Below are positions 35,446 through 44,103 of a DNA stretch of 64,000 nucleotides, piece after piece. Location of the stretch: contig JACPRU010000033.1 of NCBI GenBank assembly GCA_016189835.1, positions 8,253 through 72,252 of the forward strand, in the 5' to 3' direction. This DNA is from Deltaproteobacteria bacterium (GTDB taxonomy: Bacteria; Desulfobacterota; Binatia; JACPRU01). Numbering within the stretch: the first letter of the stretch is position 1; every line of letters starts with the position of its first letter. Under the pieces are notes generated by a model, which did not search any database, had not been told where the DNA came from, and was given only the letters and a program-made list of their open reading frames with translations. A program made the position numbers and the translations under genes.

Positions 35446-36351
35446 ATGCGAGTCGCCGCGACCGCAAGGGCCGGCGTCGCGGGCCACTCGAGACCCGGAG
35501 TGCCGGCGGCCGACGGCGGGAAGACGAAGGCGACGATGGAGGCAGAGCCAGCGCAGGTCCGGCTGATCGCGGCGGGATCGCTCACCCGGGGGCGCCGCAC
35601 GCTGGTCACGGCGTTGCCGCTCGACCACATCCGGCCGAATCCCGACCAGCCGCGCCGTCACTTCGACGAGCAGAGCCTGACGGAGCTCTGCGAGTCGATC
35701 CGTGAGCGCGGCTTGCTGCAGCCGGTGATCGTCAGGCGCGAGCCCGACGGCGGCTACCTGCTGCTCGCCGGCGAGCGGCGCTACCGCGCCTCGCGGATGG
35801 CCGGGCTGACGGCGATTCCCGCTTTGGTGCGCGACGACCATCCGCTGGAGATCGCCATGATCGAGAACCTGCAGCGCGAAGACCTGACGCCTCTCGAAGA
35901 GGCGCGGGGCATCGCCGGGCTCATCGAGGCGCAAGGCTACACGCACGCCGAAGTGGCCGACCTGCTGCACAAGAGCCGCCCGCACGTCAGCAACACGCTG
36001 GCTCTGACTCGTCTGCCGAAGGCCGTCCAGGACGAGTACAATGCCGAGCCGACGGTCTCGCGGGACATCCTGATCAGCGTCGCGCGGCAGAAAGACGAGC
36101 AGGCGATGCTCGCGCTGTGGCGGCGGGCGAAGCTCGAGCGGCTGTCGGTGAAGAGCTTTCGCGAGGAGCTGGCGCCGAGGACCGACGGCGATCCCGCGGT
36201 TCGGCGGGCGATCAATTCGGCGCGGCGGCTCGGCCGGCGGCTGGCGGCGCTGCCCGAGCAGCTTCCCGAAGAGGCCCGCGGCCGCCTGCAGCGAACGCTG
36301 CGCCGCCTGCGGCGCAAGATCGAGCGCTTCCTCGGTGAACGCAGCGCTTGA
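35446..36351 (+). CDS. ParB/Spo0J-family protein (orphan, no adjacent parA)
   Basis: ParB box IRPNPDQPRRHF, CTP-binding box LLAGERRYRASRMAG, and HTH THAEVADLLHKSRPHVSNTLAL. The start is ATG 35446 or 35536. Confidence 0.8.
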   Translation: MRVAATARAGVAGHSRPGVPAADGGKTKATMEAEPAQVRLIAAGSLTRGRRTLVTALPLDHIRPNPDQPRRHFDEQSLTELCESIRERGLLQPVIVRREPDGGYLLLAGERRYRASRMAGLTAIPALVRDDHPLEIAMIENLQREDLTPLEEARGIAGLIEAQGYTHAEVADLLHKSRPHVSNTLALTRLPKAVQDEYNAEPTVSRDILISVARQKDEQAMLALWRRAKLERLSVKSFREELAPRTDGDPAVRRAINSARRLGRRLAALPEQLPEEARGRLQRTLRRLRRKIERFLGERSA

Positions 36352-36485
36352 TCCGCGCGCCGGGACCGGCCGGGAAACCCTCGTTGCCTCCCCGCGGCGA
36401 AGCAGGTAAGCAGCGAGTCAGGCGTTGCGCCGACGCCGAGGGACGGATGCCGAAGGAGCTCACGAGCCGGCAGCGGATCGTCTCG

Positions 36486-37331
36486 ATGCGGGTATCTTTA
36501 TGGACCGTGCTGCTGCTCGCGGCGCTCGGAGCGCCGCCGGCGTGGCCGGGCTTCCGGCTCGTCGACAGCGAAGGCCAGGAGACGCTGGTCTCGAAGGGGA
36601 GGGTGAAGGAGCTCTCCGGGAACGGCGACGGGCCGCAGGCGGTCTTCGATCTGGGCGCCGCTCGGGCGTGGATGTCGAATCCGCGGCGGAGCGTCTACTG
36701 GGAAGGCACGATCGACGAGCTGTGCGCGACGATCCGCGATGCCGCGCAGTCGCTGGCCAAGGCGATGGAGCAGCAGGTCGAGGCGCAGCTCTCGAAGCTG
36801 AGACCCGACCAGCGAGCGCAGGTCGAAGGGTTGCGCCGGGCTCTGGCGGAGAAGCGCGCCGCGGGTGAGCGCGAGGCGGCGGCCAAGCCGGCGCTCATCA
36901 AGGTGGAGCGCACCGACGAGACCGCGACGATCGCCGGCCAGCCGACCCGCAAGTATCGCGTCCTCGTCGACGGCGAGCTGTATCAGGAAGACTGGCTCAG
37001 CACCGACCCGGCGCTCGGCAAGGAGTTCGCGCTCGACAAGGCCTCGGCGCTGATGAGCCGCGTCTCGTCCTGCGCGGGATCCGGCGACCCGATGCCGGAC
37101 CGGGCGAAGGGGGTCGACGAGGGAGAGGTCTACCGCGAGCTCTACGCGCACGGTTGGCCGCTGAAGGCGGTCTCCCGCGCGGGGGGCAAGGTGGCTCCCA
37201 AGAGCGAGATCCGCGCGATCGAAAAGCGCGACATCCCCGACCAGGAGTTCCGGCCGCCGCCGGGCTATCGCCGGGCGTCGCTCGCCGAGGTGATGTTCTC
37301 CGCTGCGGGCGGCGGTCCCCCCGGGAATTGA
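36486..37331 (+). CDS. Secreted hypothetical protein
   Basis: Signal MRVSLWTVLLLAALGAPPAWPG from ATG 36486 (alternative 36447). Normal composition. No family recognised with confidence. Confidence 0.55.
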   Translation: MRVSLWTVLLLAALGAPPAWPGFRLVDSEGQETLVSKGRVKELSGNGDGPQAVFDLGAARAWMSNPRRSVYWEGTIDELCATIRDAAQSLAKAMEQQVEAQLSKLRPDQRAQVEGLRRALAEKRAAGEREAAAKPALIKVERTDETATIAGQPTRKYRVLVDGELYQEDWLSTDPALGKEFALDKASALMSRVSSCAGSGDPMPDRAKGVDEGEVYRELYAHGWPLKAVSRAGGKVAPKSEIRAIEKRDIPDQEFRPPPGYRRASLAEVMFSAAGGGPPGN

Positions 37332-37407: not shown

Positions 37408-38091
37408 ATGACCCCGCGGGGGTACCTGTTCGACTACGGAGGCACGCTCGACGGCGAAGGCTGGCACTGGTTCGACCGCACCGTCTACCTCTACCGCAGA
37501 GCGGGATGCGGCGCCGCCACGCCGCTGCTGAAGCGCGCCTTCTACACGGCCGAGCGGATCATCGCCGAGGAGGCGCCGCGCGACCGCTATCGCTTGCGAC
37601 CGCTGATCGAGCGCCACGTCGAGCTGCAGATGGCGGTGCTCGGCGCCGGTGCCCGCCGCGTCGCCCCCGCAGTCGTCGCGGGCTTCTGTGCCATCACCGA
37701 GGACGGCTGGCGGCGCGCGCGCGCGACGCTCCGCCGCCTGGGCGGCGCGGCCCGCCTCGGCGTCGTCTCCAACTTCTACGGCAACCTGCGAGTACTGCTC
37801 GAGGAGGGCGGCCTCTCCCCGCTGCTCGACGCCGTGGTCGAATCCGCCCACGTCGGCGTCGAGAAACCCGATCCGGCGATCTATCGGCTGGCGGCCGAGC
37901 GCCTCGGCCTGCCGCCGGCCGACATCCTCATGGTGGGCGACAGCTTCGAGCGCGACGTGCGCGCGGCGCGCGCGGCGGGAATGCGCGCGATCTGGCTGCG
38001 CCGCGGCGTCGCCGCCGCACCCGAGGCGGGCGTCGCCGAGCGCGTGGTCGCCGCGCTCAGCGAGGTCGGCGAGCCGGCGGCCGGGCGATGA
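37408..38091 (+). CDS. HAD-superfamily (subfamily IA-like) hydrolase
   Basis: 227 aa. Motif I is YLFDYGGTLD, motif II VVSNF, motif III/IV VEKPDPAIY...MVGDSFERDV. Confidence 0.8.
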   Translation: MTPRGYLFDYGGTLDGEGWHWFDRTVYLYRRAGCGAATPLLKRAFYTAERIIAEEAPRDRYRLRPLIERHVELQMAVLGAGARRVAPAVVAGFCAITEDGWRRARATLRRLGGAARLGVVSNFYGNLRVLLEEGGLSPLLDAVVESAHVGVEKPDPAIYRLAAERLGLPPADILMVGDSFERDVRAARAAGMRAIWLRRGVAAAPEAGVAERVVAALSEVGEPAAGR

Positions 38092-38789
38092 AGGCGGGTA
38101 TCATCGCCGCCGGGCTCGGCGAGCGGCTGCGCGGCGCGGGCATCGCCACGCCGAAGCCGCTGTTGGTGGTCGGCGGCAAGACGCTTCTCGAGCGGACGAT
38201 CGAGTCGGCGGCCGAGGCGGGCGCCGAGGAGGTGGCGCTGATCATCAACGGCGAGTCGCCGGAGGTGGCGCGCTACGTGAAGGAGCGGCGCTGGCCGGTG
38301 CCGGTGCGGCTCACCGAGAAGACGACCCCGAGCTCGATGGAGAGCTTCTTCACGCTCGAGCCCGAGCTGCGAGACTCCCCGTTCCTGCTCGCCACCGTCG
38401 ATTCGATCGGCGCGCGGGGAACGCTCGCCCGGCTGGCCGAGGCGGGACGGTCGGCGGGGCCGAGCGGGACGCTGGCGATCACGCGGCTCGTCGACGACGA
38501 AAAGCCGCTGTGGGTCCGGCTCGGCGACGACGCGATGAAGATCGTCGAGATCGGCGCCGGCGCGGCCGGCAGCGGCTGGGTGACGAGCGGGGGCTACTTC
38601 TTTTTCCCCGAGGTGTACCGGCACGTCGCCGAGGCGCGCCGCCGCGGCCTCACCGCGCTTCGCCACTTTCTCGCCCTGCTGCTCGAAGAGGGGTGCCGGC
38701 TGCACGGCTTCCCCGCCGGGGACTCGATCGACGTCGACCGCCCCGAGGACATCGCGGCCGCGGAGAGGTTTCTCGCCGCTCGTGGCTGA
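38088..38789 (+). CDS. Nucleotidyltransferase (NTP_transferase/cytidylyltransferase-like)
   Basis: 233 aa. It has the N-terminal MKAGIIAAGLGERLRG...PKPLL signature. Its ATG overlaps the HAD stop (ATGA). Confidence 0.8.
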   Translation: MKAGIIAAGLGERLRGAGIATPKPLLVVGGKTLLERTIESAAEAGAEEVALIINGESPEVARYVKERRWPVPVRLTEKTTPSSMESFFTLEPELRDSPFLLATVDSIGARGTLARLAEAGRSAGPSGTLAITRLVDDEKPLWVRLGDDAMKIVEIGAGAAGSGWVTSGGYFFFPEVYRHVAEARRRGLTALRHFLALLLEEGCRLHGFPAGDSIDVDRPEDIAAAERFLAARG

Positions 38790-39558
38790 GCGCGTCGCCA
38801 TCGGCGTCTACCGCGAAGCGCGGTTCTCGCCCGGCAAGATCGAGGACGATCGGGCGATCCTCGACCGGACCGCCGCCGAGCTGCGCCGCGCCGGTGTCGC
38901 GGTGGAGATGGTCGACGGCGATCGCTTGCCCTCGCTCGAGCCCGCGCCGGCGCTGGTCTTCGCCATGTGCCAGGGGGAGCGGGCACTCGCTTGGCTGGAC
39001 GAAGCGGCCAAGCGCTCCCCGGTGGTGAACCATCCCGACGCGATCCGCGTCTGCTACCGCGTGAACCTCGTCGAACGCCTCGCCCGCCGTGGCGTGTCCC
39101 AGCCGCGCTGGGCGATCGCCGGCGAGCACTTTCCCGAAGACCTCGGCGTCGGGCCCTGGTTGAAACGCGGGGACGTGCATGCCATGGAGGCGGGTGACGT
39201 GCGGCGGGTGTTCACGGCCGAGGAGTGGACGGGGATCGCCGCCGATTTCCAGCGCAGGGGGATCGGTCGAGCCATCGTGCAGCAGCACGCGGAGGGATCC
39301 GTGTACAAGTTCTACGGCGTGAGGGGCGGATTCTTTCGCGCCTTCGGGCTGCCGGCGGGGCAGGAGGAGGCCGCGGCGGCGCTCGCCGAGCGGGCGGGCG
39401 ACGCGCTCGGGCTCGACGTCTACGGCGGCGACGGCGCCGCCGGCCCCTCGCTCGCGCTGATCGACGTCAACGACTGGCCGAGCTTCTCGCGCTGCCGCGA
39501 CGAGGCCGCCGCGGCGATCGGCCGGCGCTTGCTCGCGCGGATGGAGAATCGGGAGTGA
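38782..39558 (+). CDS. ATP-grasp fold protein (RimK/ITPK-like ligase or kinase)
   Basis: 258 aa. Lys/Gly-containing segments (PWLKRGDVHA, VQQHAEGSVYKFYGV) and a C-terminal LIDVNDWPSF motif are typical of ATP-grasp enzymes. The GTG start overlaps the upstream gene by 8 nt. Confidence 0.55.
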   Translation: MAERVAIGVYREARFSPGKIEDDRAILDRTAAELRRAGVAVEMVDGDRLPSLEPAPALVFAMCQGERALAWLDEAAKRSPVVNHPDAIRVCYRVNLVERLARRGVSQPRWAIAGEHFPEDLGVGPWLKRGDVHAMEAGDVRRVFTAEEWTGIAADFQRRGIGRAIVQQHAEGSVYKFYGVRGGFFRAFGLPAGQEEAAAALAERAGDALGLDVYGGDGAAGPSLALIDVNDWPSFSRCRDEAAAAIGRRLLARMENRE

Positions 39559-39559
39559 C

Positions 39560-40909
39560 ATGAAGGTCGAGAAGAACAGCGGGCCGCCGGCGAGCGTTCC
39601 CGGGCCGCGGTCGAGACGGATCCACGCCGAGGAGCAGAAGGTGATCGCGCCGGGCCTACAGCGCATCGCGCTGCTCTCCGAGCTCACGCTCACCTCCGGA
39701 CGCGGAGCCACCGTCGAGGACGCCGACGGCAACCGCTACGTGGACTTCTTCGCCGGCGTGGCGGTGGCGAGCCTCGGCCACTCGCACCCGCACTGGGTGT
39801 CGCGGATGGAGGAGCAGATCCGCAAGATCTCGGTCGGCAGCTTCACCACCGAGAATCGCCTGCGCTTTCTCCAGAAGCTCGCCGAGGTCACCCCCGGAAG
39901 CCTCGACCGCGCGCAGCTCTACAGCGGCGGCGCCGAGGCGGTCGAGGCGGCGATCCGCCTCGCCAAGTCCTACACCAAGAACTACGAGGTCGTCGGCTTC
40001 TGGGGCGGGTTCCACGGCAAGACCACCGGCGTCGTCGGGCTGATGGGCGACGAGGGCAAGCACGGCTGGGGCCCGCTGCCCGGCGGGCGCTTCCTCACCC
40101 CCTACGCCGATTGCTACCGCTGCCCGATCGGCCTCGATTACCCGAGCTGCGGCGTGGCCTGCGCGGAGTTCGCGCGCAAGACGATCAAGAACGCGACCTC
40201 GGGTGCGGTGGCGGCGGTGCTGATCGAGCCCATGCAGGGCACGGCCGGCAACGTGGTGCCGCCGCCGGAGTTCCTGCCCGCCATCCGCGACATCGCCCAC
40301 GAGGCCGGAGCGCTGCTCATCGCCGATGAAATGATCACCGGCTTCGCCCGCACCGGCACGATGTTCGGCGTGGAGCACTCGGGAGTGGTCCCGGACATCA
40401 TGACCACCGGCAAGGGAATGGCCAGCGGCTATCCGGTGACGGCGGTGATCTCCACCGACGAAATCAGCCGCGCCGAGCCGTGGGCCAAGCCCTCGGGTGC
40501 TTCGTCGAGCTATGGCGGCAACCCGCTGGCGGCGACCGCCGCGCTCGCCACGCTCGAAACCGTGCTCGAAGAGAAGCTCGCCGAGCGCTCCCGCGATCTC
40601 GGCGCGGAGATGAAGCGGCGCTTGCTCGCGCTGCAGGAGAAGTACGAGTTCATCGGCGACGTGCGCGGCGTCGGCCTGCTGATCGGCGTCGATCTGGTGC
40701 GCGACCGCAAGACCAAGGAGCCGCTCGCCAGGAAGGTCACCGAGCGCATCTTCCTCGAATGTCTGCGTCGCGGCCTCTTGCTCATGGGCTACATGCCGCG
40801 CGTGCGCATCAACCCGCCGCTCACCGTCACGCGGGAAGAGATGGAGCGTGGGCTCGGCGTGCTCGACGAGGTCTTCGCCGAGATCGCCCGCGACCGCAGC
40901 TACCGGTGA
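39560..40909 (+). CDS. Class III pyridoxal-phosphate aminotransferase
   Basis: 449 aa. Motifs SGGAEAVEAAIRLAK, LIADEMITGFARTG and the PLP lysine motif TTGKGMASGYP. Confidence 0.85.
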   Translation: MKVEKNSGPPASVPGPRSRRIHAEEQKVIAPGLQRIALLSELTLTSGRGATVEDADGNRYVDFFAGVAVASLGHSHPHWVSRMEEQIRKISVGSFTTENRLRFLQKLAEVTPGSLDRAQLYSGGAEAVEAAIRLAKSYTKNYEVVGFWGGFHGKTTGVVGLMGDEGKHGWGPLPGGRFLTPYADCYRCPIGLDYPSCGVACAEFARKTIKNATSGAVAAVLIEPMQGTAGNVVPPPEFLPAIRDIAHEAGALLIADEMITGFARTGTMFGVEHSGVVPDIMTTGKGMASGYPVTAVISTDEISRAEPWAKPSGASSSYGGNPLAATAALATLETVLEEKLAERSRDLGAEMKRRLLALQEKYEFIGDVRGVGLLIGVDLVRDRKTKEPLARKVTERIFLECLRRGLLLMGYMPRVRINPPLTVTREEMERGLGVLDEVFAEIARDRSYR

Positions 40910-41925
40910 AGAAGCACCGAGGCGCGATCGCCGGCTTCGGCAAGGTGGCCGCCGAAGCGCACTTCCCCGGCTTTCGCCAAGCGTCGGGCTTCGAGATCGC
41001 CGCGGTGGTCGATCCCTCCGAGAAGCGGCGCGCGGCAGCGCTGGCCGCGCTCCCCGGAGTGCGCGTCTACGCCGACCTCGCCGCGGCGCTCGCGGCCGAG
41101 GGACGGCTCGACTTCGTCGACGTGGCGACGCCGCCGCGGCTGCACGCGCCGACCTGCCTGCAGGCGCTCGCGCGCGGCCTGCACGTGCTCTGCGAGAAGC
41201 CGCTGGCGCTCGATCTCGCCGAGATCGCCGAGTTGCGGCGCGCGGTTCGCCGCAGCGGCCGCACGCTGTTCACGGTGCACAACTGGAAGTACGCCCCGCT
41301 GGTTCGCCGCCTGCACGGCCTGCTGCGCGCCGGCACGATCGGCGAGACCCGCGAGATCGACTGGGAGGTGTTGCGGCCGAGCCCGCCGCAGGGCGCGGCC
41401 GAGGCCGGCTGGCGCCTCGACCCCGGGCAGGCGGGCGGCGGCATCCTCGTGGATCACGGCTGGCACGCGTTCTATCTGATGCTGTTTCTGATCGGGCTGC
41501 CGCCGCGATCGATCGTCGCGCGGCGGAGCACCGCGCTCGGTTTCGGCGTCGAGGACGGAGCGGAATGCGAGCTCGACTTCGGCGACGCGCTCGCGCGCAT
41601 CCGGCTGCGCTGGGGCGCCGCCGAGCGCCGCGCCGGCGGCGTCGTGCGCGGCTCGCTCGGCGAGATCCGCATCGAAGACGATCGACTGACGGTGGCGCCG
41701 AGCGATCGTTCGACGCAGGTCACCCGCTTCTCGCCCGCGCTCTCCGCCAGCTCCTACCACCCGGAATGGTTCCCGGCGCTGCTCGAGGACTTCCGCGCCG
41801 AGATGCAGCACCCCGACCAGCGCGGCCGCAGCTTCGTCGAGGCCGTGCGGGTGGCCGAGATGATGGCTGCGGCCTACCGCTCCGAGGGGCGAATGATCTC
41901 GCTCGCGGCCGCGGAGCGCGCCTGA
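40906..41925 (+). CDS. Gfo/Idh/MocA-family NAD(P)-dependent oxidoreductase
   Basis: 339 aa from a GTG that overlaps the upstream stop (GTGA). Rossmann segment [12 protein letters not shown]; CEKPLA motif. Confidence 0.8.
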
Positions 41926-43085
41926 TGGCGCTCGACCTGAGCGGCGGCCTCGCCGAGAGGCTGCCGGGGAGCCGGATCGTCGTCTGGTGCGGCGCGCAGG
42001 GTGCGCGAGTGGCGGGCGTCGAAGGGTGGCGGCGTGCGGTCTACACGGCCTGCCGCGCGGGCTTCGAGAGCCTGCTCGTCGTCGTCGAAGGCGATGCCGA
42101 GCGCGTGCGGCGCGAGCTGTCGGCCGATCCCCGGCTCGCCGGACGGCGCTGGGAGGTGGCACACGCGCGCGAGGCGTGGGCTGTGCGGGTCGCCGAGGCC
42201 GGCGGCCGGTGGGTGTCGCTCGACGATCGCTGGGTCGTCGACGCGGCGCACCTGCGGCAGCTCGCCGAAGGCCGCGGTGCGCTGGTCTCGGCTGCTCCGG
42301 ACGGCCCCCTGGCCGCCGACGCGGCGGAGCTCGCGGCGCTGGCGGCCGCAGGCTGGACGCCCCGCTTGCGCCGGCCGTCCGCCGGGCGGCCGATCGACCC
42401 GCCGGCGGTCTACGTGCGCGTCGAATCCGCCGCCGACGTGGCCGCCGCCGAGGACGCGCTGTTCCGGAGCCTCGCCCGCAACGCCACGACCTTCTTCGCG
42501 CGCCACGTCGATCGAGCGCTGTCGCGGGCGATCTCGCGGCGGCTCGCGCCTCATCCGGTGACGCCCGACCAGATCACGATCTTCTCGATCGGGCTGGGCG
42601 TGGTCGGGGCGCTCTGCCTGCTACGGCCGAGCTACGGCTTCGGGCTGCTCGGTTCGTTCCTGTTCCTCGCCTCGACGGTGATCGACGGCTGCGACGGCGA
42701 GATCGCTCGGCTCAAGTTCCAGGAGTCGGCGCGCGGCGCCAGGCTCGACGTCATCGGCGACAACGTCGTCCACGCGTTCCTCTTCCCCTGCGTCGCGCTG
42801 CACGCCCACTTCGGCGATCCGACTGGCCCCTATCTCTGGCTCGGCACGGCCGCGCTGGCCGGCGTGCTGGTCACCTGGGCCGTCGTCTACGCGCTGATCG
42901 TGCGCGGCCGGCCGTCGGGGCGGCTGCTCGGTTTCTTCGAGCTGTTCGGCAACCGCGAGTTCGCCTACCTGTTCTTCGTTCTCGGGCTGATCGGCAAGCT
43001 GCACTGGTTCGTGTGGGGGATGGCGGTCGGGCTGTGGGTGTTCCCGCTCGGCCTCGTCGTCCTGCGCTGGCTGGAGCCCCGATGA
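41925..43085 (+). CDS. Two-domain protein: unknown N-terminal domain plus CDP-alcohol phosphatidyltransferase
   Basis: 386 aa. The signature is [30 protein letters not shown] (D-G-x2-A-R-x8-G-x3-D-x3-D) inside a polytopic C-terminal half. The start overlaps the upstream stop (TGATG). Confidence 0.8.
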
Positions 43086-43309
43086 GGCTCGACTTTTCCT
43101 ACCCGCCCCGGCATGGGAGCGGTGAGGTGAGCGTCCCCGACACCGTCCGTTGCCCGACCTGCCGCCGCGTCGGCCCCTGGGCGGGAAACCCCCATCGGCC
43201 GTTCTGCTCGCAGCGCTGCAAGCTCGCCGATCTCGGCAACTGGGCGAGCGAGCGCTATCGCATCGCCGCGGAGCGCGTCCCCGTCGACGAGGAGGAGAGC
43301 GAGGAATGA
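43082..43309 (+). CDS. yacG: YacG-like zinc-finger protein (DNA gyrase inhibitor family)
   Basis: 75 aa. CPTC...[21 protein letters not shown] is the YacG signature. ATGA overlaps occur at both ends. Confidence 0.75.
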
Positions 43310-44103
43310 TTCATCCGACCGCGATCGTCGACCCGCGGGCGGAGATCGACCCCACCGCGGAGATCGGCGCGTACGCGGTGATCGAGGGTCCGGCGCGCAT
43401 CGGCGTGCGCACCCGGGTGATGGCCCGGGCGGTCGTCACCGGGGGCGCGGCGCTCGGCGCCGACAACGTCGTGCACTACGGGGCGGTGCTCGGCGACGTG
43501 CCGCAGGACCTCGCCTTCGCCGGCGCGGAATCCTTCCTGCGGATCGGCGACGGCAACGTGTTCCGCGAGCACTCGACGGTTCATCGAGGCACCCGGCCGG
43601 GCAGCGCGACCGTGATCGGCAACCGCAACTACTTCATGCAGAACAGCCACGTCGCGCACAACTGCGCGATCGGCGACGACGCCATCGTCGCCGGCGGCGC
43701 GCTGCTCTCGGGCTACGTCGAGCTCGGCGACCGGGGCTTCGTCTCGGGAAACTGCGTGGTGCATCAGTTCGTTCGCATCGGCCGCCTGGCGCTGCTGCGC
43801 GGCCTGTCGCGCACCAGCCGCGACGTGCCGCCGTTCTGCATCATGGACGGCACGCACACGGTGAGAGCCGTCAACCGGGTGGGCTTGCACCGCGCCGGGT
43901 TCTCCGCCGAGGCCCTGCGGGCGCTGCGCAACGCCTTCAAGGCCCTGTTCCTGCGGCCGCGAAATCTCCGGCAGGCGCTCGCCGAGGTCGAGGCCGAGCC
44001 GATGACCGCGGAGGTGAAGGAGCTGGTCGACTTCATCCGCGCTTCCAAGCGCGGCGTCTGCTTCGGGCCCCGGGCCGACGGGCCGGACGCCGAGGCCGGC
44101 TAG
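43306..44103 (+). CDS. lpxA: Acyl-ACP--UDP-N-acetylglucosamine O-acyltransferase
   Basis: 265 aa. It starts [14 protein letters not shown] and has left-handed beta-helix hexapeptide repeats. The [10 protein letters not shown] catalytic region and a C-terminal helical domain are present. Confidence 0.85.

Follow-up and report, generated by a model that had tools for sequence, protein, structure and literature searches.

Inositol lipids are considered rare in bacteria. To our knowledge, the route in which the head group is activated as CDP-inositol (a Kennedy-type route) is known experimentally from a single organism, and it has only been predicted in gut Bacteroidetes. Here we describe a cassette of six genes, at positions 37408-43085 of a 64,000-nt stretch of contig JACPRU010000033.1 (assembly GCA_016189835.1), from an uncultured bacterium of the class Binatia. 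We consider this cassette to be a new and more elaborate form of the pathway to CDP-inositol-dependent lipids. We put the probability at roughly 0.5 that it makes, by a Kennedy-type route, an inositol-derived phosphate head group that bears an amine and is placed on a membrane lipid. "The window" refers to the whole stretch, and coordinates that are given without a locus or contig name are positions in it.

The experimentally elucidated system is the operon of Rhodothermus marinus that encodes inositol-1-phosphate synthase (MIPS), CTP:inositol-phosphate cytidylyltransferase (IPCT), and BEPIS (Jorge et al. 2015). As outlined in the sources, the head group of a dialkylether glycerolipid comes from CDP-inositol in this system (PMC4587543, PMC9246714). 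To judge from these outlines, the R. marinus operon and the cassette have in common a genomic link between the inositol phosphate synthase, the cytidylyltransferase, and a membrane CDP-alcohol transferase. In both, the head group and not the lipid would be CDP-activated, and the product would be a membrane lipid, which for the cassette is a prediction. Unlike the operon as outlined, the cassette adds a HAD-family hydrolase, an orphan ATP-grasp protein, a Gfo/Idh/MocA dehydrogenase, and a class III aminotransferase, and its product is predicted to be aminated. Compared by description, the cassette's transferase also differs from that of R. marinus by carrying a degenerate IPCT-like domain.

A putative alternative inositol lipid cluster from Bacteroides (Phocaeicola) vulgatus and Prevotella comprises MIPS, a nucleotidyltransferase, a CDP-alcohol transferase, and a HAD protein, with an LPG-synthase-like gene nearby, and a CDP-inositol intermediate was proposed (Heaver et al. 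2022, PMC9246714). Compared by gene families, the window has the nucleotidyltransferase, the CDP-alcohol transferase, and the HAD protein, while MIPS and a member of PF03706 (LPG_synthase_TM/HpnL-like, flippase-like) are encoded elsewhere in the genome. In relatives of the cassette from Ignavibacteriales and Bacteroidota, the full B. vulgatus-type set is contiguous. The putative B. vulgatus cluster, unlike the cassette, has no ATP-grasp, aminotransferase, or dehydrogenase gene, and ordinary phosphatidylinositol (PI) or PI-dihydroceramide was proposed as its product (PMC9246714).

The cassette's transferase, P0006, shares its two-domain architecture and its CDP-alcohol transferase motif with the enzymes of the archaeal and Thermotoga IPCT/DIPPS pathway for di-myo-inositol phosphate (Archaeoglobus fulgidus IPCT-DIPPS, 4mnd; AF2299, 4o6m). 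Unlike those enzymes, P0006 lacks the cytidylyltransferase signature in its N-terminal domain, and cytidylyl activation falls to a separate protein. DIPPS makes a soluble compound. In contrast, the context of the cassette in its relatives is lipid export, not solute synthesis. A precedent for a dehydrogenase-aminotransferase-kinase-phosphatase logic comes from streptidine biosynthesis, in which myo-inositol is converted to scyllo-inosose and then to scyllo-inosamine, which is phosphorylated, and a phosphatase acts later. However, the streptidine aminotransferases are of the DegT/StsC class instead of class III, the kinase is not an ATP-grasp enzyme, and no CDP activation or membrane transferase is involved.

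A conserved cassette of six genes

An initial annotation, made from the DNA alone, proposed that eight translationally coupled genes (37408-44103) form one set for the synthesis of a CDP-activated, aminated polyol or sugar head group or solute, ending in yacG-lpxA. All eight frames are open and lie on the + strand, with the annotated starts and stops:

37408..38091 (+): HAD-family hydrolase, 227 aa, opening the cassette; from Pfam; predicted pathway phosphatase
38088..38789 (+): small sugar/polyol-phosphate nucleotidyltransferase (P0002), 233 aa; from Pfam; predicted CTP:(amino)inositol-phosphate cytidylyltransferase, IPCT/LicC/MurU-like
38782..39558 (+): 258-aa orphan ATP-grasp protein with a GTG start, the cassette's signature gene; from a structural model and fold search; predicted (amino)cyclitol kinase
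39560..40909 (+): class III (GABA-AT-like) pyridoxal phosphate (PLP) aminotransferase, 449 aa; from Pfam; predicted to convert keto-inositol to inosamine
40906..41925 (+): Gfo/Idh/MocA NAD(P) dehydrogenase, 339 aa, GTG start; from Pfam; predicted to act on (phospho)inositol and provide the ketone
41925..43085 (+): two-domain membrane CDP-alcohol phosphotransferase (P0006), 386 aa; from PF01066 and a structural model
43082..43309 (+): yacG, 75 aa, zinc-finger DNA gyrase inhibitor family; from PF03884
43306..44103 (+): lpxA, 265 aa, UDP-GlcNAc O-acyltransferase; from TIGR01852

The junctions are exactly as annotated: ATGA at 38088 between the HAD and nucleotidyltransferase genes, an 8-nt overlap at 38782 leading into the GTG start of the ATP-grasp gene, a 1-nt gap at 39559 before the aminotransferase gene, GTGA at 40906 before the dehydrogenase gene, TGATG at 41923-41927 (a 1-nt overlap) before the CDP-alcohol transferase gene, and ATGA at both 43082 (before yacG) and 43306 (before lpxA). 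The N-terminus that follows from the GTG start of the ATP-grasp gene agrees with those of 29 homologs. A consensus scan of the eight-gene block found no promoters, and terminator-like sites inside the block are no more common than in shuffled sequence. The annotation's domain calls agree with Pfam and NCBIfam, and for the ATP-grasp protein, with the structural model and fold search.

To compare gene neighborhoods, as the annotation had suggested, we scanned a profile of the ATP-grasp protein over one genome per prokaryotic species. This gave 486 relatives, and we compared the best 80 loci, to which the counts out of 80 refer. We also traced relatives of P0006 and of the ATP-grasp protein to their contigs. 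The HAD, nucleotidyltransferase, ATP-grasp, aminotransferase, and dehydrogenase genes are found in that order on one strand in 43 of the 80 loci. The full set of five is found in 52/80 loci, and many of the others are truncated at contig ends; 49/80 have a CDP-alcohol transferase and 43/80 a PF03706 gene. The loci are labeled as Binatia, Myxococcota, Syntrophobacteraceae, Syntrophorhabdales, Ignavibacteriales, Bacteroidota, Verrucomicrobiae, and others, and one of the carriers is an isolate, Desulfoferrobacter suflitae DRH4 (L069). By these counts, the five-gene arrangement is far beyond chance, and the six genes are a conserved cassette.

The last two genes of the block are a different matter. 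Among the 80 loci, yacG-lpxA lies downstream of the cassette in just five (L033-L036 and L105), all of which are close relatives within the window's family. In L001, a 198-aa gene separates yacG-lpxA from the cassette, and in L002, an opposite-strand beta-helix gene and a 199-aa gene do so. (The gene of ~198 aa between the cassette and yacG, at L001:11222-11818 and L002:13401-14000, has no Pfam match on record.) The window has no such gene (43085-43306), so yacG is directly coupled to the transferase there. Because the adjacency of yacG-lpxA is confined to the window's family, we consider the functional unit to be six genes (37408-43085), not eight, and we rejected yacG-lpxA as part of the pathway. 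The coupling of lpxA, which the annotation had thought unusual, is ordinary family-specific synteny. We predict that yacG and lpxA are probably co-transcribed with the cassette but are functionally unrelated neighbors.

The identities of these neighbors are clear at the family level. YacG matches PF03884 (78.8 bits versus a cut-off of 25.5) and has the CPTC...CSQRC zinc finger, but it does not reach the NCBIfam equivalog (63.7 versus 83). LpxA exceeds the cut-offs of TIGR01852 (276.9 bits versus 231.05) and NF003657 (282.1 versus 226). lpxA is the sole copy in the assembly, which is 75% complete; lpxC is on another contig, and a search for lpxD was negative. We take lpxA to be an ordinary lipid A gene. 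On the other side of the cassette, the frame directly upstream (36348-37331, + strand) matches no Pfam family. Its product is 63% identical to a 277-aa protein whose gene abuts the HAD gene in L001, and it is absent from L002. This frame is a family-specific neighbor.

Some genomes carry two or three copies of the ATP-grasp gene, with the cassette split or partly duplicated (for instance, L025/L107 in G083:C8 and L030/L031 in G036). Examples of split cassettes include a PF03706 gene followed by the HAD, nucleotidyltransferase, and ATP-grasp genes, with a second group 5 kb further on (CDP-alcohol transferase, ATP-grasp, aminotransferase, dehydrogenase, CDP-alcohol transferase), and a separate mini-operon of ATP-grasp, MIPS, and dehydrogenase genes.

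The membrane transferase

P0006 belongs to the CDP-alcohol phosphotransferase family: residues 213-322 match PF01066 at 34.9 bits (cut-off 22). The catalytic motif (in general form, Dx2DGx2AR-x8-G-x3-D-x3-D) is complete, as DGCDGEIAR-x8-G-x3-D-x3-D, and its Asp and Gly residues are invariant in 33 homologs. The AlphaFold model has a predicted local distance difference test (pLDDT) score of 90 and shows a six-helix transferase domain. The N-terminal ~190 amino acids, which the annotation had left unassigned, form a nucleotidyltransferase-like cytoplasmic domain in the model, and we assign them, from the model and the fold match, as a degenerate IPCT-like domain. The best full-length fold match is the A. 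fulgidus IPCT-DIPPS (4mnd; E = 3e-12, 436 aligned columns), followed by AF2299 (4o6m) and then the phosphatidylinositol-phosphate (PIP) synthases 5d92 and 6wm5 (E ~ 1e-6). In the N-terminal domain, only G31 and R37 are invariant, and the GxGxRL...PKP signature is not conserved. This suggests that the N-terminal domain is a non-catalytic relic.

The annotation had proposed profile searches with IPCT/DIPPS-like families in mind, and the best NCBIfam matches of P0006 are indeed IPCT/DIPPS, archaetidylinositol-phosphate (AIP) synthase, and PIP synthase, all of them below cut-off. The genome contains three further matches to CDP-alcohol transferases, on other contigs.

Outside the window's family, many cassettes contain a second, divergent two-domain CDP-alcohol transferase (L003:7257-8537 on the - strand, L005:5147-6403, and L072:12196-13476). 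In this paralog, DGxDGxxAR is retained, but other residues stand in place of the motif's third and fourth Asp (as in ...G-ELE-H-AGD-F), and it may be catalytically altered or inactive. We looked for it near the cassette in the window's genome and did not find it.

An orphan ATP-grasp family

The 258-aa protein matches no family in Pfam or NCBIfam, although it has more than 1,400 homologs in the protein collection. In a library of 1.84 billion representatives, the family comprises 549 clusters at 50% identity (E <= 1e-30). Its AlphaFold model has a pLDDT of 94, and a Foldseek search with this model found LysX (E = 1.7e-13), Ddl, maize ITPK1, and RimK, with template modeling (TM) scores of ~0.7 and up to 0.77. 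Together with this fold, the invariant ATP-binding Lys (K128) and Mg site (D228-x-N230) place the protein in the ATP-grasp superfamily. When we compared a profile of 30 members to solved structures in PDB, the matches were to plant ITPK4 (7pup; E = 6e-4), confined to the C-terminal region of the Mg site, and to LysX/RimK (E = 1e-3). Individual members have sub-threshold Pfam matches only, to four different ATP-grasp families (TTL, ATPgrasp_ST, Ins134_P3_kin, and RimK), so we consider them to form an orphan ATP-grasp family. ITPK (PF05770) in particular is sub-threshold in five of the 30 members, with a best E value of 0.02, which does not reach the gathering cut-off.

The annotation left two options for this protein: it could ligate an acid or it could phosphorylate the polyol. 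Fold or profile alone does not decide between a kinase and a ligase. Gene fusions and variant loci are more informative. Among the representatives of the family, seven are fusions of a nucleotidyltransferase domain to the ATP-grasp domain, one (P0312) is a fusion of HAD, nucleotidyltransferase, and ATP-grasp domains, and one is a fusion of ATP-grasp and CDP-alcohol transferase domains. It is a familiar arrangement for a kinase to be fused to the nucleotidyltransferase that acts on its product, as in HldE or in fucokinase/GDP-fucose pyrophosphorylase. Also, L096 and L109 keep MIPS and the HAD, nucleotidyltransferase, and ATP-grasp genes, together with PF03706 and exporter genes, and both lack the aminotransferase and the dehydrogenase. 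(A CDP-alcohol transferase was called in L109.) This implies that the oxidation/transamination pair is an add-on module and that the ATP-grasp protein does not depend on the amine. Given the nucleotidyltransferase fusions and the loci that lack the pair, an ITPK-like cyclitol kinase is favored over an amide ligase, and we consider the kinase role more likely. The ITPK-type similarity around the Mg site also counts in favor of a kinase. Of the annotation's two options, phosphorylation is thus the favored one and acid ligation is disfavored.

We also noticed a 691-aa protein (P0343) in which a PAS-HisKA-HATPase_c histidine kinase is fused to an ATP-grasp domain of the cassette type.

The other four enzymes

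The HAD protein matches Hydrolase, HAD_2, and Hydrolase_like in Pfam but does not reach any NCBIfam equivalog. Its nucleophilic Asp and motifs II-IV are intact. Motif I is non-canonical (D-x-G-G-T-L-D), with a Gly at Asp+2 that is invariant in 20 orthologs from several phyla. P0002 matches NTP_transf_3 and NTP_transferase, carries the GxGxRL...PKPLL signature, and can be aligned over its full length to the IPCT half of NF041135 and to the A. fulgidus IPCT structures 2xme and 4mnd.

The aminotransferase (Aminotran_3, PF00202, 323.6 bits) is below every NCBIfam equivalog cut-off, and its nearest solved structures are GabT-type enzymes. It is the best-conserved member of the cassette: the window's protein is 55-69% identical to those from the UTPRO1, Dadabacteria/Myxococcales, Syntrophobacteraceae, Thermodesulfobacteriota, and Ignavibacteriales loci. 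An alignment of 19 sequences (the window and 18 loci) shows three invariant features: the PLP-binding Lys (in GKG), a C-terminal Arg (in R-I-N-P-P-L), and an FHGKT motif. We take the C-terminal Arg to bind the alpha-carboxylate of the amino donor, and the Lys of FHGKT takes the place of Arg141 of GabT (FHGRT). These features suggest that it is a real transaminase with a specificity of its own.

The dehydrogenase has the GFO_IDH_MocA domain and the associated C-terminal domains in Pfam, and its relatives in PDB are generic sugar/polyol dehydrogenases. Its membership is established for the Gfo/Idh/MocA superfamily only. It is always paired with the aminotransferase, and in L096 and L109 the two are missing together.

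Inositol and lipid-export genes

The annotation had also proposed to look for an inositol-1-phosphate synthase elsewhere in the genome, and MIPS is present on contig C26, at C26:11005-12108. It adjoins a gene for a PF03706 membrane protein (C26:9961-12108). About 9 kb from MIPS, at C26:20333-22664, a second PF03706 gene lies beside a gene for a B12-binding radical SAM protein that is 32% identical to HpnJ. This region may be a second locus for lipid head groups.

In 16 of the 80 loci, MIPS and the cassette are no more than 9 kb apart, and in most of these MIPS immediately precedes the HAD gene. In L031, MIPS lies between a copy of the ATP-grasp gene and the dehydrogenase gene, in one operon. 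We confirmed MIPS by Pfam in L085, L067, and L072. A metagenome-assembled genome (MAG) from Ignavibacteriales has a single-strand operon of 12 genes: nucleotidyltransferase, MlaE, MlaF, MlaD, ATP-grasp, aminotransferase, CDP-alcohol transferase, dehydrogenase, PF03706, HAD, MIPS, and SDR. We also examined a sample of 151 genomes from the phylum, of which 16 carry the cassette and 135 do not. MIPS is present in 11/11 carriers that are at least 90% complete, compared to 79/135 non-carriers. Taken together, the polyol is very probably inositol.

Genes for lipid export are embedded in several related operons. MlaE/F/D are inside the Ignavibacteriales operon (L085); MlaC and an outer-membrane efflux protein (OEP) are in the D. 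suflitae locus (L069); L109 has an OEP, an MMPL-type RND pump, and MlaC; L072 has TolC and an HpnN-like pump; and L005 has MacAB-type genes upstream of the cassette. With flippase-like and lipid-export genes inside related operons, a lipid head group is favored over a solute, so we favor a membrane lipid that would be moved across the envelope as the product.

The proposed pathway

The pathway that we propose builds on what the analysis shows: the identities and folds of the gene products, their catalytic motifs, the conserved cassette with its partner genes, and the fusions between domains. The substrates, the order of the steps, the role of the kinase, and the lipid acceptor are what we infer. 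Inositol-1-phosphate synthase, encoded elsewhere in the genome, would make inositol phosphate, and the HAD enzyme would remove the phosphate. The Gfo/Idh/MocA dehydrogenase would then oxidize one of the ring hydroxyls to a ketone, which the class III aminotransferase would convert to an amine (inosamine). The ATP-grasp protein, acting as a kinase, would re-phosphorylate the cyclitol, and the small nucleotidyltransferase would use CTP to form the CDP-activated form. Finally, the IPCT/DIPPS-like membrane transferase would place the phospho-cyclitol on a lipid alcohol, for which a glycerolipid is the likeliest candidate, with release of CMP. Of the original proposal for a CDP-activated, aminated polyol that serves as a head group or a solute, the pathway logic survives for six genes, with inositol as the likely polyol and a head group as the likely product, while the solute is disfavored.

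Several points weigh against this pathway. The substrates are guesses, because every specific family assignment falls below the curated cut-off. P0006 scores 65.8 bits against the bifunctional IPCT/DIPPS family (NF041135; cut-off 580), over residues 163-319 only; 38.2 bits against PIP synthase (NF045883; cut-off 170); and 44.7 bits against AIP synthase (NF040950; cut-off 180). The aminotransferase scores 299.9 bits against the GabT equivalog TIGR00700 (cut-off 506.65), and the best NCBIfam match of the dehydrogenase, inositol 2-dehydrogenase IolG (TIGR04380), is at 77 bits versus 355. For the nearest characterized transferases (DIPPS and the PIP and AIP synthases), inositol phosphate is the acceptor and not a CDP-activated donor, which would give a different order of steps. 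The HAD protein is without the usual general acid at Asp+2, so it may not be a simple phosphatase. It also looks wasteful to dephosphorylate the product of MIPS and then to phosphorylate it again; this loop needs a reason, such as a different position on the ring or the salvage of free inositol. The fold search with the ATP-grasp protein puts the ligases LysX and Ddl marginally above ITPK1. The window has no adjacent gene for a flippase or an exporter, and MIPS is on another contig. (Similarly, no HpnL-like gene was found near the cassette in this genome; the best PF03706 homolog is on contig C42.) Finally, no amino-inositol phospholipid turned up in the literature that we searched.

Alternative explanations

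If the ATP-grasp protein is an amide ligase, then the same head group could be reached by another order of steps: inositol phosphate would be CDP-activated directly, transferred, oxidized, and transaminated, and the amine would be acylated with an amino acid or another acid, while the HAD enzyme would remove a phosphate, as in the conversion of PIP to PI. This would explain the HAD gene, because the DIPPS, PIP, and AIP synthases, which are the nearest characterized relatives of P0006, give phosphorylated products that need a phosphatase. It also fits with LysX and Ddl being first in the fold search and with the profile match to LysX at E = 1e-3. But the ATP-grasp gene persists in L096 and L109 without the aminotransferase and the dehydrogenase, and its recurrent fusion partner is a nucleotidyltransferase (seven cases), or a HAD domain and a nucleotidyltransferase, which is the pattern of consecutive steps of phosphorylation and nucleotidyl activation. 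We disfavored a ligase for the new amine on these grounds and consider this scheme rather unlikely. Another idea, which we think is unlikely, is that the product is not a lipid but a compatible solute, related to di-myo-inositol phosphate (DIP) and aminated. MIPS, an IPCT-like nucleotidyltransferase, a DIPPS-like transferase, and a phosphatase are the parts list of the DIP pathway; P0006 is nearest to IPCT-DIPPS in both sequence profile and fold; and a solute would be consistent with the window's lack of an adjacent lipid flippase or exporter. However, the operons of other lineages hold MlaE/F/D, MlaC, RND, and TolC exporters and flippase-like PF03706 genes, and the carriers are mostly mesophilic bacteria from soil or sediment, not hyperthermophiles, to judge from the labels of the MAGs. 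Also, BEPIS of Rhodothermus, the sole bacterial CDP-inositol transferase described experimentally, acts on a lipid according to the outline of that work (PMC4587543), and B. vulgatus and P. veroralis, which have a related cluster, make inositol lipids (PMC9246714). Least plausible of all is that the genes share no pathway and are unrelated housekeeping enzymes (GabT-type, PgsA-type, a generic sugar dehydrogenase, and a phosphatase) in a shared operon. Each protein, taken alone, does reach just a superfamily-level assignment. But the same order recurs across phyla in the 43 loci, members are fused to each other, the aminotransferase has its own invariant signature, and the genome has three other CDP-alcohol transferase matches on other contigs. 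The conservation and the fusions already contradict this explanation, which we consider very improbable.

The remaining alternative is that the cassette decorates hopanoids, by adding phospho-(amino)inositol to bacteriohopanetetrol or its cyclitol ether to form a phospho-hopanoid. The hopanoid genes hpnI, hpnK, and hpnJ are indeed neighbors of the cassette: at least one of them is within 9 kb in 16/80 loci. L072 is flanked by hpnI, hpnK, and hpnJ, all above their NCBIfam cut-offs, and by the HpnN-like pump; hpnJ (739 bits) overlaps the start of the HAD gene in the isolate D. suflitae (L069); and in L005, hpnJ-hpnK-hpnI follow the dehydrogenase gene in one operon (HpnJ, 742 bits versus 578). 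In the phylum sample, a squalene-hopene cyclase is present in 12/16 carriers and 21/135 non-carriers. The PF03706 partners score best against the HpnL model but stay below its cut-off (112-164 bits versus 196), and the window contains no hpn gene. There are clear exceptions. No cyclase (PF13243) was found in the window's genome or its congener (75% and 79% complete), in a 99% complete carrier (G164), or in the carriers from Ignavibacteriales, Bacteroidota, and BroJett037. In a cyclase-less Ignavibacteriales locus, the aminotransferase is 57% identical to the window's, which implies that the substrate is not a hopanoid there. hpnI, hpnJ, and hpnK were not found in the window's genome (by tblastn and the HpnJ model), and hpnJ is absent from all seven genomes of the window's family. 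Based on the cyclase and HpnJ models across 151 and 41 genomes and five named loci, we rejected an obligatory link to hopanoids: there is enrichment, with clear exceptions. As the general function of the cassette, hopanoid decoration seems quite improbable, and we return to the amine-bearing inositol head group on a membrane lipid as the preferred explanation. As a side observation, two genomes from the window's class (G076 and G165; 98% and 100% complete) encode HpnJ well above the cut-off (715 and 710 bits) and lack squalene-hopene cyclase, so the substrates of this radical SAM enzyme may include compounds other than hopanoids.

Implications

The cassette is found in several hundred species-level genomes, from bacteria of soil, sediment, and anaerobic digesters. 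It is possible, though doubtful, that it represents an unrecognized class of bacterial membrane lipids, the phospho-inosamine lipids, with a complete Kennedy-type route and an orphan ATP-grasp cyclitol kinase; under this broader proposal, in lineages whose operon includes hpnIJK and hpnN, hopanoids may receive the same head group or be exported with it. If the proposed pathway is correct, a zwitterionic aminocyclitol phospholipid would join the lipid repertoire of bacteria, and a function would be available for an unannotated family of ATP-grasp proteins with 549 clusters. Such a lipid would also account for nitrogen-containing polar lipids that have gone unidentified in environmental lipidomics. 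Because D. suflitae DRH4 is a cultured carrier of the cassette, the question is directly testable.

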